Notes under the pieces: generated by a model
What the model was told of the DNA's origin: nothing
Databases searched by the model: none
What the model saw: only the letters and a program-made list of their open reading frames with translations
Shown: one piece after another, positions 6,387-14,834 of the stretch
Numbering within the stretch: the stretch's first letter is position 1
Layout of the letters: each line of letters begins with the position of its first letter
Virus record (IMG/VR): IMGVR_UViG_2913167280_000003
Span: 27,299 to 91,298 of that record
DNA from: a virus
Taxonomy: Duplodnaviria; Heunggongvirae; Uroviricota; Caudoviricetes
Direction: 5' to 3' (one strand)
Length of the DNA: 64,000 bases
Program-made: the position numbers and the translations under genes

Positions 6387-7004
<618 letters not shown>

Positions 7005-7106
7005 TCCATTGAGTGGGAATATTGCCGTCTGGGAGTAATATGGTATCATTAAGTTAGAGTAGGTAGTGTAGATGGAATGAGGAGTATCATATGGTTATCA
7101 CACAAT

Positions 7107-7182: not shown

Positions 7183-8076
7183 ATGCATTCTTTACAGAAA
7201 TACATAAAACATAAATATACTCACTTAACTTTTTTTCTCTCATTACTTTTTTTCATGATATTTGAATCGCGAGAAGATCTTATCAAGAAAATATTATCTT
7301 TTTCTCTCAATGAAGTTTTACCATTCTTAATGTTTGCGTTCTTCTCCGTATTTATCAGCATAACGATAAAGGAAAAGATAGCAAAGAAATACCCAGAAAC
7401 AAACGATGGGATTACCATTATAGCTTTAATCTTTGGTGTAACACTATATAGTGTGTTTATCTTATATTATTTATATGGTGATGTATACCAATCCACAATT
7501 GCTTTACTTATAAGTTCTGTGCTACTTGGTTCTGGGTGGTGGGTTCAGGCTACTGTGAGTAAAGTAGCCGCAAGAAAATCACACACCTTAAATACACTAA
7601 TGAATCAAAGAAACAGTGAATTATTTCACAAGAAAGTTTCATCGGTAGCGAATACGTTCGGGCTTAGAAAAACCATAAATGAAATTATTGCCAAACAAAG
7701 ACTTGTCCCAAATGATAAAGATTTAAAAAATAAAAAGGTCCATGATGAATACATATCAGCAGGTAATGATATGTTCTTCGTTCTTAATTATTATGAATTT
7801 ATCTGTTCAGGAATAATAAATGGGGACTTTGATGAAGATTCAATGAGAGAATGTCTTGGACAAATTGTTCCAGGTCTCGAAGTTAGAGCATTTCATTTTA
7901 TAAGAATTGCAAGAGAAATTTCAGGGAGTAGCTGCTTCTGTAATTTTGTCGCTGTTTCAGACAAATGGTCTACTAATGGAGGCTCTCTTATTCTCAGACA
8001 CGAGAAAGGAGAACCTGTGATTAATAACCTGACCCATTGCTTTGAAGAAACAGACTGTTTTAACATAACTTCTTAA
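7183..8076 (+). CDS. AT-rich accessory membrane protein, about 4 predicted TM helices plus ~170-aa C-terminal domain (297 aa)
   Basis: Hydrophobic segments LTFFLSLLFFMIF, LPFLMFAFFSVFISITI, ITIIALIFGVTLYSVFILYYLYG, IALLISSVLLGSGWW; AT-rich composition unlike flanking backbone; hairpins on both sides. Confidence 0.6.
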   Translation: MHSLQKYIKHKYTHLTFFLSLLFFMIFESREDLIKKILSFSLNEVLPFLMFAFFSVFISITIKEKIAKKYPETNDGITIIALIFGVTLYSVFILYYLYGDVYQSTIALLISSVLLGSGWWVQATVSKVAARKSHTLNTLMNQRNSELFHKKVSSVANTFGLRKTINEIIAKQRLVPNDKDLKNKKVHDEYISAGNDMFFVLNYYEFICSGIINGDFDEDSMRECLGQIVPGLEVRAFHFIRIAREISGSSCFCNFVAVSDKWSTNGGSLILRHEKGEPVINNLTHCFEETDCFNITS

Positions 8077-8130: not shown

Positions 8131-8311
8131 TCAATCGCCGGGCTTTAAGCATCCATCGTTTTTGGCTTGTTGATATAACTTACTTAGCCCAGAAAGAGGG
8201 AATGTGGCAATTTTTTCATTATCAACATAAGCATCAATCACATTAGCATTTGAATCTGCTGCATCCTGCCAAAAGGCATACCACCAAGAATCTCCAACCA
8301 TTGACCCAAGA
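8131..8311 (-). pseudogene. remnant of a paralog of the 154-aa gene (C-terminal ~57 codons only)
   Basis: Minus-strand translation ...DSWWYAFWQDAADSNANVIDAYVDNEKIATFPLSGLSKLYQQAKNDGCLKPGD* aligns with C-terminus of ORF 9673-10137 (...REWYSFWKSASATKEKNMDVYIG...SSIYKEAKNDGCLK); no intact N-terminus. Confidence 0.45.
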
Positions 8312-8400
8312 GGGATTTGACGTCTTCGAGTAATTGTCGTTGTGTCATTGACACCTCGTAGAATCTGGTGTGTTAACCGATTCTACGAGTTATCATTTGT
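8312..8400. repeat. ~88-bp direct repeat copy 2, including duplicated start codon and 12 codons ([12 protein letters not shown]) of the 188-aa gene
   Basis: Near-identical to 6917-7004; the duplicated start at 8346 is followed by a stop after about 36 codons. Confidence 0.85.
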
Positions 8401-8501: not shown

Positions 8502-9686
8502 TCAAGCTTTAAGAGGCTTTGTGTATGTTCGTGTAATCCATCCAGTAATAAACTCGTCCCCTGATTTAACCTGCACGAAAAGCCATTGGCGATCTTTTTT
8601 ATCTAAAATAGCAACAATTGTATTTTTACCAATGCACTCTATCACTTCACTATTTAAAGAAGGACTGACATGTAATCTTACATTATCACCTGTTATAGCT
8701 CTAAAATTATTAAGATCCTCCCACTGAATATCTTTATTTTCTTGTGTTAGCTTTTGCTTAGATATTGGCTTATCCTCATTTAGGGATAGAATATATGATT
8801 CCATCCCGTAAATTTGCGATAATGTTTTTTCTTTCGCATAATCAGTTATAGCGCCAAGAAATACTTGACACAAAATCCACAGAAGAAAAGTCTGAACAGG
8901 AGAAGGAAGCGCCTTAAATGAATCAATAAACGTCGAACTAGATTTATTTAATCCTTTGTCTTGAGCATCACTTTCAGTGTGTGATGTTTCAATGGCACCT
9001 TCGATATAAGCCTGTGCAATTGTTGAAAGACCTTGCTCCATTATTTGATGAAATGAAGCCTTTTGTGCTTGAGTATATTGATTTAATAATTCTTTTATTT
9101 CATTGTTTAAATCTATCTTGTGAGTTACATTTTTCCGCAATTCATTAAGCATTGCTTGCATGTTATTCAAGCCAGCTTGCTTATTAAGCATCTCGAACTG
9201 GTTTCGTAACGGCATAGCTATTTCGGCCTGTTTCCTTAGCATTTGAATGTGTTTATTTGCATCATGAGTGGAAAAAGCCTGAGCCTGTTTCTGTAAAATA
9301 TCAATATGTTTACGAAACTCGTTGCCTATTCCTGCCAGTTTCGGCATATTCTCAAACTGTTTTCGAATAGAATCACTAACTATGGATTGCAAATTAAATC
9401 TTGCTATTTGTTCTTGAGCTAGCTGTCCTATTCTTAACTGTTTTTGCAAGTTTGCCATATGTTCTTTATACGATGGAATGATTGCGTTTTTTTGCAGTTC
9501 CGCCAACTGTCTAACCAAATTATTAGAAGCATAATCTGATTTTAATAAATCACTTACCGATTTATATTCGGGCATTTTGATTTTATTTAAATCATCACGC
9601 CAAGTAATATTTGAATCTTTATTATAAAGATCGCTTACTGAGCCAAGAGCAAGTTTTTTAATGTCCTTCACTTTATTCACCGTCAT
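8502..9686 (-). CDS. accessory protein with helical repeat region and C-terminal SH3-like domain (394 aa)
   Basis: Repeated helical motifs (LQKQAQAF, MLRKQAEIA, MLNKQAGL) and C-terminal segment NVRLHVSPSLNSEVIECIGKNTIVAILDKKDRQWLFVQVKSGDEFITGWITRTY resembling bacterial SH3 domains; AT-rich. Confidence 0.6.
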   Translation of the reverse strand: MTVNKVKDIKKLALGSVSDLYNKDSNITWRDDLNKIKMPEYKSVSDLLKSDYASNNLVRQLAELQKNAIIPSYKEHMANLQKQLRIGQLAQEQIARFNLQSIVSDSIRKQFENMPKLAGIGNEFRKHIDILQKQAQAFSTHDANKHIQMLRKQAEIAMPLRNQFEMLNKQAGLNNMQAMLNELRKNVTHKIDLNNEIKELLNQYTQAQKASFHQIMEQGLSTIAQAYIEGAIETSHTESDAQDKGLNKSSSTFIDSFKALPSPVQTFLLWILCQVFLGAITDYAKEKTLSQIYGMESYILSLNEDKPISKQKLTQENKDIQWEDLNNFRAITGDNVRLHVSPSLNSEVIECIGKNTIVAILDKKDRQWLFVQVKSGDEFITGWITRTYTKPLKA

Positions 9687-10137
9687 CTTGCTTTAAACAC
9701 CCATCATTTTTAGCTTCCTTGTAAATACTTGAAATGCCATCAAGAGAGAATGATGTAATTCGACGCGATCCGATATATACATCCATGTTTTTTTCTTTTG
9801 TGGCTGACGCTGACTTCCAAAAAGAATACCATTCCCTACGATTAGGAGAAGTGTTTTGCGTGCCAATATTAAAACTATCCGAACCAACAATTAAAGTAAT
9901 TACATCTGCTTTACGAGAAATTGTGTCGCGTGTAGAAAAATCGGCATTCTCTTTTCCTCCGCTTACATACAAATTTCTTCCAGCGATATGGTCTTCAGAA
10001 CCATCCCTTGCACCAGCATCACAAGAAAAATTAATTGTATAGCCATCCTCATGACATGCTCCGGCAAAGCGCCTCATTTGACGCTCCTGTTGACCATCTT
10101 GTCTTAACTGGAATTTAAATGCTTGTAGTCGTTTCAT
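9673..10137 (-). CDS. accessory protein of unknown function (154 aa), first gene of two-gene operon
   Basis: ORF overlapping downstream gene by 14 bp; a degenerate partial copy exists at 8131-8311. Confidence 0.55.
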   Translation of the reverse strand: MKRLQAFKFQLRQDGQQERQMRRFAGACHEDGYTINFSCDAGARDGSEDHIAGRNLYVSGGKENADFSTRDTISRKADVITLIVGSDSFNIGTQNTSPNRREWYSFWKSASATKEKNMDVYIGSRRITSFSLDGISSIYKEAKNDGCLKQDDGE

Positions 10138-10299
10138 CCCACTATTTTAAACAAAAACAGTTAGGTGGAGAACCGCGCCTTATATCCCCACCCTGAAGGA
10201 CGGGGTTTTACGGCGCACCGGATAACTCATTTAGGGTACATATTTTCGCCTTTAAAAAAAAGAGGTTATTAGATCCATTTGTGTATTTATTAAACAGAT

Positions 10300-10316
10300 A
10301 ATGCTCTAATAAATTT
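10300..10316 (+). promoter_or_regulatory. C1 operator-like site (AATGCTCTAATAAATTT), Op51 position upstream of immI
   Basis: 16/17 match to the P1 C1 operator consensus ATTGCTCTAATAAATTT; upstream of c4/icd/ant. Confidence 0.75.
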
Positions 10317-10489
10317 GTATTTTTAAGTCGCGAATGCTATCTTTTCGCATCATATTGACCTTTTAATCGTTCAGGCTTATAGTTCCGCCGTCGTAGCAAA
10401 TTCTGCGACCAGGTTTGACAGCCTGAAAACTTACGCGGACAACCGCACATTTCCGATATTGCGGTATTTTTGTGTCCGTAAAACCACGT

Positions 10490-10575
10490 TACGCCCGAAT
10501 TATGGTGGGGCGTGATGGGGAGGCTTCGGCCTGCTGGTTTCGTAAGTGCCAGTCTGTCAACCCTGTCACGTCCTG
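10490..10575 (+). ncRNA. c4: c4-like antisense RNA (immI repressor RNA); exact ends not determined
   Basis: Contains a' CGTAAGT (10541-10547) and b' CTGTCAA (10554-10560), complementary to b1/a1 (TTGACAG 10415-10421, ACTTACG 10429-10435) and b2/a2 (10584-10590, 10612-10618); a2 overlaps the icd RBS. Confidence 0.55.
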
Positions 10576-10629
10576 CCACCTGTTTGACAGCGGGTCGCAG
10601 GTTGTTTATCAACTTACGAGGCCGTAACT

Positions 10630-10851
10630 ATGGTTAATGCCAATCCTTGCGCACGCCAAGAATTCATCTGGCGTTTCTATTCCTGTAAAAAACACCACTA
10701 TCACTTCGTTATCGCAGCAACAGAAGACGAAGCACGCTCTCAATTGCCTGATGGCCCCTGCATTTTTACTGCCCGTTTTTCGACTAACTCGCGCAATTCA
10801 CTTAGTTACTGGAACCTCCCCTTCTCTGCCGACGTTCAGGGGGTTTTATGA
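10630..10851 (+). CDS. icd: Icd-like cell-division interference protein (73 aa)
   Basis: 73-aa ORF immediately downstream of c4 target a2/b2, stop overlapping ant start (ATGA); arrangement as in P1 immI. Confidence 0.65.
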   Translation: MVNANPCARQEFIWRFYSCKKHHYHFVIAATEDEARSQLPDGPCIFTARFSTNSRNSLSYWNLPFSADVQGVL

Positions 10852-11885
10852 AAAAACCTCTCGTCACCCGGAATGAAATAGCCGAAGCGGTCGCCCTGCA
10901 TACTGCCTGTATGCCGACACGGGAGATCCCCGGCGCAATTGCCAACTACTTCATGATAACCAGGCGTTTTTATACCCGAACAGATAAGGCTGTGATCAAC
11001 AGGCTACTGATAGCCGAGATCAGGGATTATTTGATTGAACAAGGACGTCTACGTTACGCAACAGTGGCAGCAGAAATGAGAAAGGAGGCACATAGAATGA
11101 CCGGTAATAATTTGAATGTTGAAAAACCAGCACCTGTTACGTCAGCTACGCCAGCACCAGCCGTGAATATTATCCCCAACACCGGAGACACAATCGACAG
11201 CCTGACACTGTTAAAGATGGTCAATGAAGCGCGTAAGTTATGTGGGGAACCAGAGGTTCGGAACAACAAATTCATCGAAAAAATACTCGATGAGCTTGAT
11301 GGTGAGCACTACACAAAAAGTGTAGTGGAAAAAATGAACAAAACATCAATGCTTGTCATAACCATGACCTACAAACAAGCCCTGCGAGTCGCCGCGCGCG
11401 AATCAAAAGCTGTCCGCCGTTCGCTGATCGACAAACTGGAAGAATTGCAGCAGGCAAACTCCCCTACCCCATCGATCCCCCAAACATTACCAGAAGCCCT
11501 ACGCCTGGCTGCCGAGTTGGCAGAACAGAAAATGCAGCTGGAACAACAGCTGGTGGCCGCAGCCCCTAAAGTCGATTTTGCCGACCGGGTATCAGTGGCT
11601 AATGGAATCCTGATCGGGAACTTTGCAAAGGTCGTTGGACTGAAGCAAAACGCCCTTTTCTCATGGTTGCGCCAGAACGGCATTCTCATGGCTTTTGGTG
11701 CGCGCAAAAACGTACCGCGCCAACAGTACATCAACGCCGGGTATTTCACGGTGAAAGAAGTGGTGCTGGATGATGAAAATGGCTACCAGATACGGCTGAC
11801 GCCCCAATTAACGGGTAAAGGCCAGCAGTGGTTAACTCGTAAGCTACTTGCTACTGGTTTGTTAAAACCAGTAGCAATAGGTTAA
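10848..11885 (+). CDS. ant: antirepressor Ant (345 aa)
   Basis: Position after icd; C-terminal domain (PEALRLAAELAEQKMQLEQQLV...GKGQQWL) is the KilA-C/ANT-type domain shared with the KilA ORF at 12049. Confidence 0.7.
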   Translation: MKKPLVTRNEIAEAVALHTACMPTREIPGAIANYFMITRRFYTRTDKAVINRLLIAEIRDYLIEQGRLRYATVAAEMRKEAHRMTGNNLNVEKPAPVTSATPAPAVNIIPNTGDTIDSLTLLKMVNEARKLCGEPEVRNNKFIEKILDELDGEHYTKSVVEKMNKTSMLVITMTYKQALRVAARESKAVRRSLIDKLEELQQANSPTPSIPQTLPEALRLAAELAEQKMQLEQQLVAAAPKVDFADRVSVANGILIGNFAKVVGLKQNALFSWLRQNGILMAFGARKNVPRQQYINAGYFTVKEVVLDDENGYQIRLTPQLTGKGQQWLTRKLLATGLLKPVAIG

Positions 11886-14019: not shown

Positions 14020-14201
14020 TACAATCGCTGCGGGTGCTTGAGGCTATCTGCTTCAGGCACTACCCGACAAGCAGATAGAAGAAAGCCCCAGATAACATTA
14101 CGCGTCCTGCAAGACGCTTAACATTAATCTGAGGCCATATCTATGCTTAGCATACGTAGATTAGCCCTCTCCCCTTTTTAGGAGCAAGGAATTTTTTACT
14201 G

Positions 14202-14834
14202 CTATGCCGCCTTTCCAATTATGGATTCAGCGACCAGAACAACCCCATGCTTACTTCTATCTGGGTGTTCACTCCATATCTCGGATTCAGGAATACTTAC
14301 CCCGTCATAGCAAACACGTTCGCCGTCAAACGGGTAATACTGAGCGGCATCGGTGTCGAGGATAAACACTTTTAGCTCGGAAGAGCGACGGGCGATGTGT
14401 TGCCAAAGAGCTTTTCCACCTTCGTATTGCTCATTATCACTGAGCAAAACAACACCAGCTTTTGAGGCTACGGTTTCGTAAACAAAAGTAGCTAAACCGA
14501 CATCCCGGACGGTTCCATCAACCACGATACCTTCAATCTGGGCAACATCGCTATCCTCCCAGAACTTCCTTACAAGTACGCCTTCAAGCTGCGGGCGACG
14601 TTGAAGTTCAAGAGTAGCGACAACCTTATGGCGCATATCACCATCGATAACAGAAGGCGCAGCCTCTATTACAGCTGCAAATGGGGTTTTGGAATCCCAT
14701 ATAACCTGGTAAAGCACACCCTGGATGGTAACTCCGTCCAGGATCGAAAATCGACGAGCGACAGTACCCGGGGAGTACGACATTGGAATCACAGCCATTT
14801 TAGAGTCCCCCTTTAACAGTACAGGCACAAACAT
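14202..14834 (-). CDS. hypothetical protein (210 aa; possibly starts at internal Met MAVIPMSY)
   Basis: ORF in track; no motif recognised. Confidence 0.45.
   Translation of the reverse strand: MFVPVLLKGDSKMAVIPMSYSPGTVARRFSILDGVTIQGVLYQVIWDSKTPFAAVIEAAPSVIDGDMRHKVVATLELQRRPQLEGVLVRKFWEDSDVAQIEGIVVDGTVRDVGLATFVYETVASKAGVVLLSDNEQYEGGKALWQHIARRSSELKVFILDTDAAQYYPFDGERVCYDGVSIPESEIWSEHPDRSKHGVVLVAESIIGKAA

Follow-up and report, generated by a model that had tools for sequence, protein, structure and literature searches.

A probable intact D6-type copy of the P1 c4/immI antisense switch in a P1-like phage-plasmid

The immI locus of the phages P1 and P7 represents the closest described system, its mechanism, that of Citron and Schuster, being summarised in PMC8198154, PMC8546580 and supplementary file 1 of PMC2864571. 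According to PMC8546580, which cites Citron and Schuster 1990 and 1992, the precursor transcript of P1 and P7 is cut to a 77-nt RNA, its 5' end being generated by RNase P, and icd/ant is repressed in vivo. Upstream of c4 lies the c4-a1b1 motif, described in supplementary file 1 of PMC2864571 (Weinberg et al. 2010), where the letter a denotes the distal element TTGACAG and the letter b the site proximal to the ribosome-binding site (RBS). The GenBank record of P1 (AF234172) uses the same letters, i.e. TTGACAG is labelled a1/a2 and the RBS-proximal site b1/b2, with the upstream pair a1/b1 marked as 'putative'.

The window, i.e. the whole stretch of 64,000 nucleotides analysed here, belongs to a P1-like phage-plasmid; it is ~95% identical to many P1-like plasmids of E. 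coli and Salmonella. Its genes are arranged in the order sit, pmgB, tub, pmgC, cargo, c4, icd, ant1/2, kilA and repL, the region 10300-11885 being the immI operon. With P1 (AF234172), this operon shares the order of its parts, the operator, the promoters, the c4 scaffold, the a' allele and the a1/a2 targets. The C1 operator and both c4 promoters have the same sequence as the annotated elements of P1 (Table 1); the equivalent of P1c4, moreover, coincides in position with the P1 annotation, and its alignment columns are invariant. The stop codon of icd overlaps the start codon of ant1 within the tetranucleotide ATGA (10848-10851), and the start of ant2 is found in frame at 11097, with a conserved Shine-Dalgarno (SD) and ATG context. 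All of icd, ant1/ant2, kilA and repL are intact, free of frameshifts and 94-99% identical to P1, the values for KilA and RepL being 99% and 98%, respectively. A preliminary description of the locus had called immI intact, and this is borne out by the operator, the promoter, c4, the four targets, icd, ant1/ant2, kilA and repL, each of which is complete in the sequence.

Table 1 Features of the c4/immI locus and of the adjacent cargo region in the window
Feature	Position	Strand	Remarks
DUF4760 protein	7183..8076	+	
SH3_3-domain protein, 394 aa	8502..9686	-	
154-aa ORF	9673..10137	-	first 28 aa weakly match HTH_OrfB_IS605
C1 repressor operator AATGCTCTAATAAATTT, equivalent of P1 Oc4/Op51	10300..10316	+	identical to P1 AF234172 48140-48156
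P2c4 (P51a) equivalent, upstream promoter	-35 10314-10320, -10 10338-10343	+	
Sigma-70 promoter TTGACC-17-TATAGT, equivalent of P1 P1c4 (P51b)	10355..10383	+	10/12 matches in consensus scan
c4-a1b1 two-hairpin leader motif	10377..10429	+	Rfam RF03163; a1 in loop of second hairpin
a1 target TTGACAG	10415..10421	+	exact complement, pairs with a'; "b1" in the preliminary description
b1 target ACTTACG	10429..10435	+	exact complement, pairs with b'; "a1" in the preliminary description
Mature c4 antisense RNA, 77 nt	10504..10580	+	by homology to P1 AF234172 48343-48419
b' CGTAAGT	10541..10547	+	in hairpin loop 10539-10547; "a'" in the preliminary description
a' CTGTCAA	10554..10560	+	whole 7-nt single-stranded junction; "b'" in the preliminary description
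a2 target TTGACAG	10584..10590	+	exact complement
b2 target ACTTACG (10612-10618), overlapping icd SD GAGG	10612..10621	+	exact complement; pairing extendable to 10620
icd, 73 aa, predicted translational target of c4	10630..10851	+	95.9% identity to P1 Icd, 98.6% to P7 Icd
ant1, 345 aa, antirepressor of C1	10848..11885	+	Pfam ANT/KilAC domain 1.5e-30; 93.9% identity to P1 Ant1

Two heptamers within c4 and their exact reverse complements, one pair upstream and one pair downstream, had been reported in the preliminary description, and all six elements were found at the positions given there (Table 1). The letters a and b had, however, been exchanged with respect to the nomenclature of the P1 GenBank record and of Weinberg et al. 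2010; accordingly, the overlap with the icd RBS is real but belongs to b2 and not to a2. It concerns G10618, the first G of the SD sequence GAGG (10618-10621), located 9 nt before the ATG of icd. The complete 9-nt hairpin loop UUCGUAAGU (10539-10547) is able to pair with ACUUACGAG (10612-10620), thus covering the GAG of the SD. As far as single heptamers are concerned, TTGACAG is present nine times and CGTAAGT four times in the window, and ACTTACG occurs twice on the + strand of the entire 64 kb, both occurrences being the targets. The composite TTGACAG-N(5-25)-ACTTACG matches three times, i.e. in the two target pairs and in c4 itself on the - strand, against an expectation of 0.00 (0 in 100 dinucleotide-preserving shuffles).

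The Rfam scan of the whole window at the gathering threshold identified just one copy of the C4 antisense RNA (RF01695), located at 10498-10583, with 69.6 bits against the gathering score of 45 and covering the full-length model (1-87). The leader upstream of it matches a second family, RF03163 ("a1, b1 targets of C4"), with 55.4 bits against 46.7. The segment of the mature RNA folds at -42.8 kcal/mol (shuffle mean -27.6; z = -5.2), the minimum free energy (MFE) and centroid structures being in agreement. The fold has the shape of a Y, consisting of a 17-bp closing stem, a hairpin capped by UUCG and a second hairpin, and both the b' loop and the a' junction are fully unpaired in the two structures. 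The interval 10490-10575, for which a fold had been proposed earlier, gives the same picture, with the heptamers again single-stranded, i.e. the opposite of the outcome—heptamers outside single-stranded loops—that had been named as evidence against a c4 circuit.

If the 276-nt precursor is folded, a1/b1 pair in cis with a'/b', which fits a role of the upstream pair as competitor or mask. The icd leader alone (10576-10650) exhibits no significant structure (z = -0.63). It may be mentioned that at 10592-10618, directly 5' of b2, the leaders of the D6/SJ46 type read GCAGGTTGTTTATCAACTTACG and those of the P1/P7 type GCAGGTTGTTAAACCTG-b2. A small hairpin with CAGGTTG is possible in both types—at the non-significant level of the leader fold given above—and in the D6/SJ46 type its 3' arm extends over bases 1-4 of b2.

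In order to assign the immI specificity, the alignment with P1 and P7 proposed in the preliminary description was performed, SJ46 being included, and it was extended to D6, JL22, 813R1, 673R5, Ro157c2 and RCS47. The c4 scaffold is nearly invariant throughout, the variation being concentrated in a' and b', where any change is mirrored in both copies of the target. The b'/a' alleles are CACTAAC/CTGTCAA in P1, CACAATC/CTGCTAA in P7, CGTAAGT/CTGCTAA in SJ46 and CGTAAGT/CTGTCAA in D6 as well as in the window. The a' allele CTGTCAA is thus common to the window, P1, D6 and JL22, and the b' allele CGTAAGT to the window, SJ46 and D6. With regard to P1, a' matches but b' differs at five of seven positions, with corresponding changes in b1/b2, which places the window outside the P1 specificity group. 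P7 (AF503408) has the same architecture and scaffold and a closely similar Icd (Table 1), but differs in both a' and b' together with their targets, and the window does not belong to its group either. The Salmonella phage SJ46 (KU760857), 97% identical over 10300-10900 and with a P1-like backbone, shares the b' allele and the b1/b2 targets, its a' being of the P7 type, with matching a1/a2. It is only the D6 group into which the window falls with a', b' and the matching targets; the alignment thus assigns a specificity that is neither that of P1 nor that of P7.

The energies of the duplex between the b' loop and b2 point in the same direction. On the leader of the window, the cognate loop reaches -10.1 kcal/mol, compared with -0.9 for the loop of P1 and -4.3 for that of P7, and the whole matrix of loop duplex energies is sharply diagonal, with ~-10 kcal/mol for cognate pairs. 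For the 7-nt a', such energies are crude and discriminate poorly between the alleles; the matrix is not cleanly diagonal, since CTGCTAA has other possible partners in some of the leaders, and the a' energies were therefore not used as evidence for a' specificity. Given the D6 recognition alleles, it is predicted from the sequence that the element is co-immune with elements of the D6 type and that, at immI, it is heteroimmune with respect to both P1 and P7.

The likeness to D6 (MF356679) is close but confined. No difference is seen in the 87-nt c4 segment, made up of the 77-nt mature RNA and 10 nt of flank, or in the a2-b2-SD leader, and over 10400-10640 the identity is 99.2%, both of the mismatches (2 in 241 nt) being located in the a1/b1 leader outside the six elements. 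The homology detected by blastn, however, covers only ~10370-10752 and ends inside the icd of the window, the two Icd proteins being only 50% identical overall. D6 and the D6-like plasmids possess a different Icd C-terminus, a Roi/Rha-like antirepressor in place of ant1/2, and repL upstream of c4, unlike the window, where repL is found downstream. Judged by these comparisons, the locus is a mosaic, i.e. a D6-type c4 cassette on a P1-type icd-ant1/2-kilA-repL backbone. The same combination of a D6-type c4 with P1-type icd/ant recurs in no fewer than four further contigs (L011, L080, L089 and L093). Among the complete E. coli genomes, the c4/immI locus is carried by ~10% (536 of 5,426), and in 15 records the allele set of the window is matched at an identity of at least 99%. 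Counted by records, the locus is present in ~575 entries of PLSDB and ~550 RefSeq entries of E. coli.

Concerning the distribution of the alleles, searching for the c4 core by exact pattern, the loop being left degenerate, returned nothing from IMG/VR and a single Achromobacter metagenome-assembled genome (MAG) from the GTDB genomes; it was replaced by the retrieval of loci anchored on Icd. This yielded 127 loci from IMG/VR and metagenomes and, together with the loci known earlier, 130 c4 loci, over which the alleles were counted without de-replication. The b' element was present in six alleles and a' in two, with 11 of the 12 combinations seen: CACAATC (17 loci with a' CTGTCAA and 45 with CTGCTAA), CGTAAGT (6 and 26, respectively), CATTCGT (2 and 10), CACTAAC (7 and 9), CACAAGT (3 and 0) and CATGTAC (2 and 2). 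The combination of the window thus accounts for 6 of the 130 loci, redundancy included. The one remaining locus, from the Achromobacter MAG, has distinct alleles—CCTTTTAC for b' and CTGCAAA for a'—with matched targets. This distant c4 homologue, from the Achromobacter deleyi MAG JBEBWV010000114.1 (L004:3415-3692), has the common GGCUUCGGCC hairpin; as it is matched at the upstream as well as the downstream target pair, the two-site logic extends outside the Enterobacterales.

Pairing was counted in an alignment of 44 distinct 277-nt segments. For the internal c4 stems together with a'-a2 and b'-b2, 99.7% of the cells are paired, compared with 32-54% if the partners are slid by 1-3 columns; for the helices a'-a1 and b'-b1, the corresponding values are 98.4% and 27-40%. 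Taken helix by helix, the proportion of paired cells over the 44 loci is 99.0% for a1, 97.7% for b1, 99.7% for a2 and 98.7% for b2. Compensatory double changes affect six of the seven b pairs and two of the seven a pairs (8 of 14) in each target set, and the observed pairing values were reached in none of 500 shuffles. It should be pointed out that the internal stems of c4, being almost invariant among the P1-like loci, yield no covariation evidence in this set; for these stems, covariation is supplied by the broader model of Rfam and not by the shallow P1-like family. The survey provides natural compensatory-mutation evidence for all four pairings of c4 with its targets, a1/b1 included.

Some 97% of the loci have every allele matched in both copies of its target, the six sites being interleaved in the order a1-b1-b'-a'-a2-b2 with spacings down to 6-7 nt. 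With the a and b alleles assorting almost freely and the sites interleaved in this way, linkage alone cannot keep the copies matched. The simplest reading, based on these sequence patterns, is that selection maintains the pairing at each of the four sites, the 'putative' a1/b1 among them. A narrower reading would confine the regulation to b'-b2, leaving a'/a2 and a1/b1 without any role in the specificity of repression and involved at most in the processing of the precursor, its folding or its stability. It can draw on the facts that b2 alone touches the SD, that a1/b1 are 'putative' in the P1 record and pair in cis with a'/b' in the MFE fold of the precursor, and that the a' duplex energies discriminate poorly. 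We nevertheless consider it improbable, a' covarying with both a1 and a2 just as b' does with b1 and b2, and the near-independent assortment of interleaved sites being more than linkage can account for.

Mismatched loci were encountered only in four metagenome contigs (L098, L110, L129 and L136), in which a' or b' fails to match its own targets, upstream, downstream or both; for two of these, L098 and L129, the contig name gives a coverage of 2.6x and 4.2x, respectively. L098, for example, combines a b' of the P7 type with b1/b2 of the D6 type. These contigs may have arisen by chimeric assembly of P1-like elements residing together, or they may be natural immI-virulent recombinants; in the latter case, they would be derepressed for ant.

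All these results agree with the proposal, made already in the preliminary description, that the locus matches the immI mechanism of P1: the two Rfam matches, the stable fold, the covariation, the operator and promoter of P1 and the intact operon converge on it, and an intact D6-type copy of the P1-type c4/immI antisense switch is, with high probability, the best explanation of the locus. By analogy with P1, the promoter controlled by C1 would produce a single RNA carrying a1/b1, c4, a2/b2, icd and ant1/2. The c4 segment would adopt its Y-shaped, tRNA-like fold and be excised as a 77-nt molecule, in P1 by RNase P; the sequence around the processing sites of P1 is identical in the window. In the icd leader, the hairpin loop b' (CGUAAGU) would then pair with b2 and the junction a' (CUGUCAA) with a2; with its SD hidden in the b'-b2 duplex, icd would be blocked in translation. 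By translational coupling, the block would silence the Ant1/Ant2 antirepressor, and C1 repression, and with it lysogeny, would be kept. The upstream a1/b1 would bind the same elements of c4, whether in competition or by masking them in cis before the transcript is processed. Sequence, fold, family membership, covariation, operon integrity and allele identity are seen directly; that the element is transcribed, processed and repressive, and that it has the immunity type given, is what they lead one to expect. The locus is ordinary in kind, i.e. the known c4 switch of P1 with the recognition sequences of D6. Its identification provides the window with a complete secondary-immunity switch and a D6-like immunity type, which is useful for annotation and helps to predict which P1-like phage-plasmids may coexist or superinfect.

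With regard to the flanking regions, the homology to P1 on the left side of c4 ends at 10222, 9 nt into simA, and the segment 6954-10221 stands in for the simABC genes that P1 has in this place. The statement that the sim position carries different cargo was thus confirmed, the cargo coding for a DUF4760 protein and an SH3-domain protein (Table 1). The C-terminus of the 154-aa ORF (9673-10137) resembles a 56-aa ORF at 8131-8301. Related cargo, with identities of ~82-97%, is known from other P1-like plasmids; the closest of them, CP057476.1, has a 'simA domain protein' that the window lacks. From its position alone, a role of the cargo in superinfection exclusion or defence is plausible. The DUF4760 gene lies between the two copies of a ~93-bp direct repeat (6913-7005 and 8308-8400) of the pmgC-5'/LPsit late-promoter segment, an arrangement suggesting that this gene was inserted by recombination at the repeat sequence; the cargo may be driven by the duplicated late promoter. 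On the other side, directly after repL, the Rfam sok antitoxin (RF01794) is matched at 14032-14206 on the + strand with 87 bits, at the position where P1 has rlfA/rlfB, suggesting a hok/sok-type addiction module in the flank of the lytic replicon.

The replacement of the sim region, with its possible fragment of an IS605-family element, and the fact that many P1-like plasmids are rearranged (PMC6906374) could be taken to mean that the whole locus is a silent remnant, i.e. that the window derives from a P1-like element that has become defective and in which immI has ceased to be transcribed or required, the complementarity being merely inherited. This is very unlikely and the idea of a decayed remnant was rejected: the operator, promoter, c4, four targets and the genes from icd to repL are intact and without frameshifts, c4 and its targets are perfectly matched at six separate sites, mismatched versions having been seen only in low-coverage metagenome contigs, and the elements covary across the family. 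Chance complementarity in an unrelated structured region, for which only the recurrence of the lone heptamers in the window could speak, was discarded with near certainty in view of the ordered pair (three matches against 0.00 expected in the shuffles), the matches to two independent Rfam models and the covariation across the 44 loci.

Returning to the allele survey, it is conceivable—although we put it forward tentatively and think it less probable than not—that immI specificity in the P1/D6 family follows a two-module combinatorial code. If so, as many as a dozen immI groups, each heteroimmune to the others, would exist among natural P1-like plasmids, having arisen from fine-scale patch recombination, and the window would represent one of the rarer ones. 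The matched copies would then require selection on all three copies of each element, the 'putative' a1/b1 being no exception. No description of such a code was found in the literature searched, which did not extend to Gilcrease and Casjens 2018 (D6) and the primary papers of the Schuster laboratory; the combinatorial allele structure might be the only new aspect of the locus.

Finally, some single contigs contain two icd/c4 loci that differ in their specificity alleles, such as the locus pairs L015 and L050, or L094 and L132. Examples of records with two loci are IMGVR_UViG_2703718869_000013, SKEI01000056.1 and SKEX01000248.1, and they echo the second c4-icd region of the D6-like plasmid pYU39_89 (PMC6799933).
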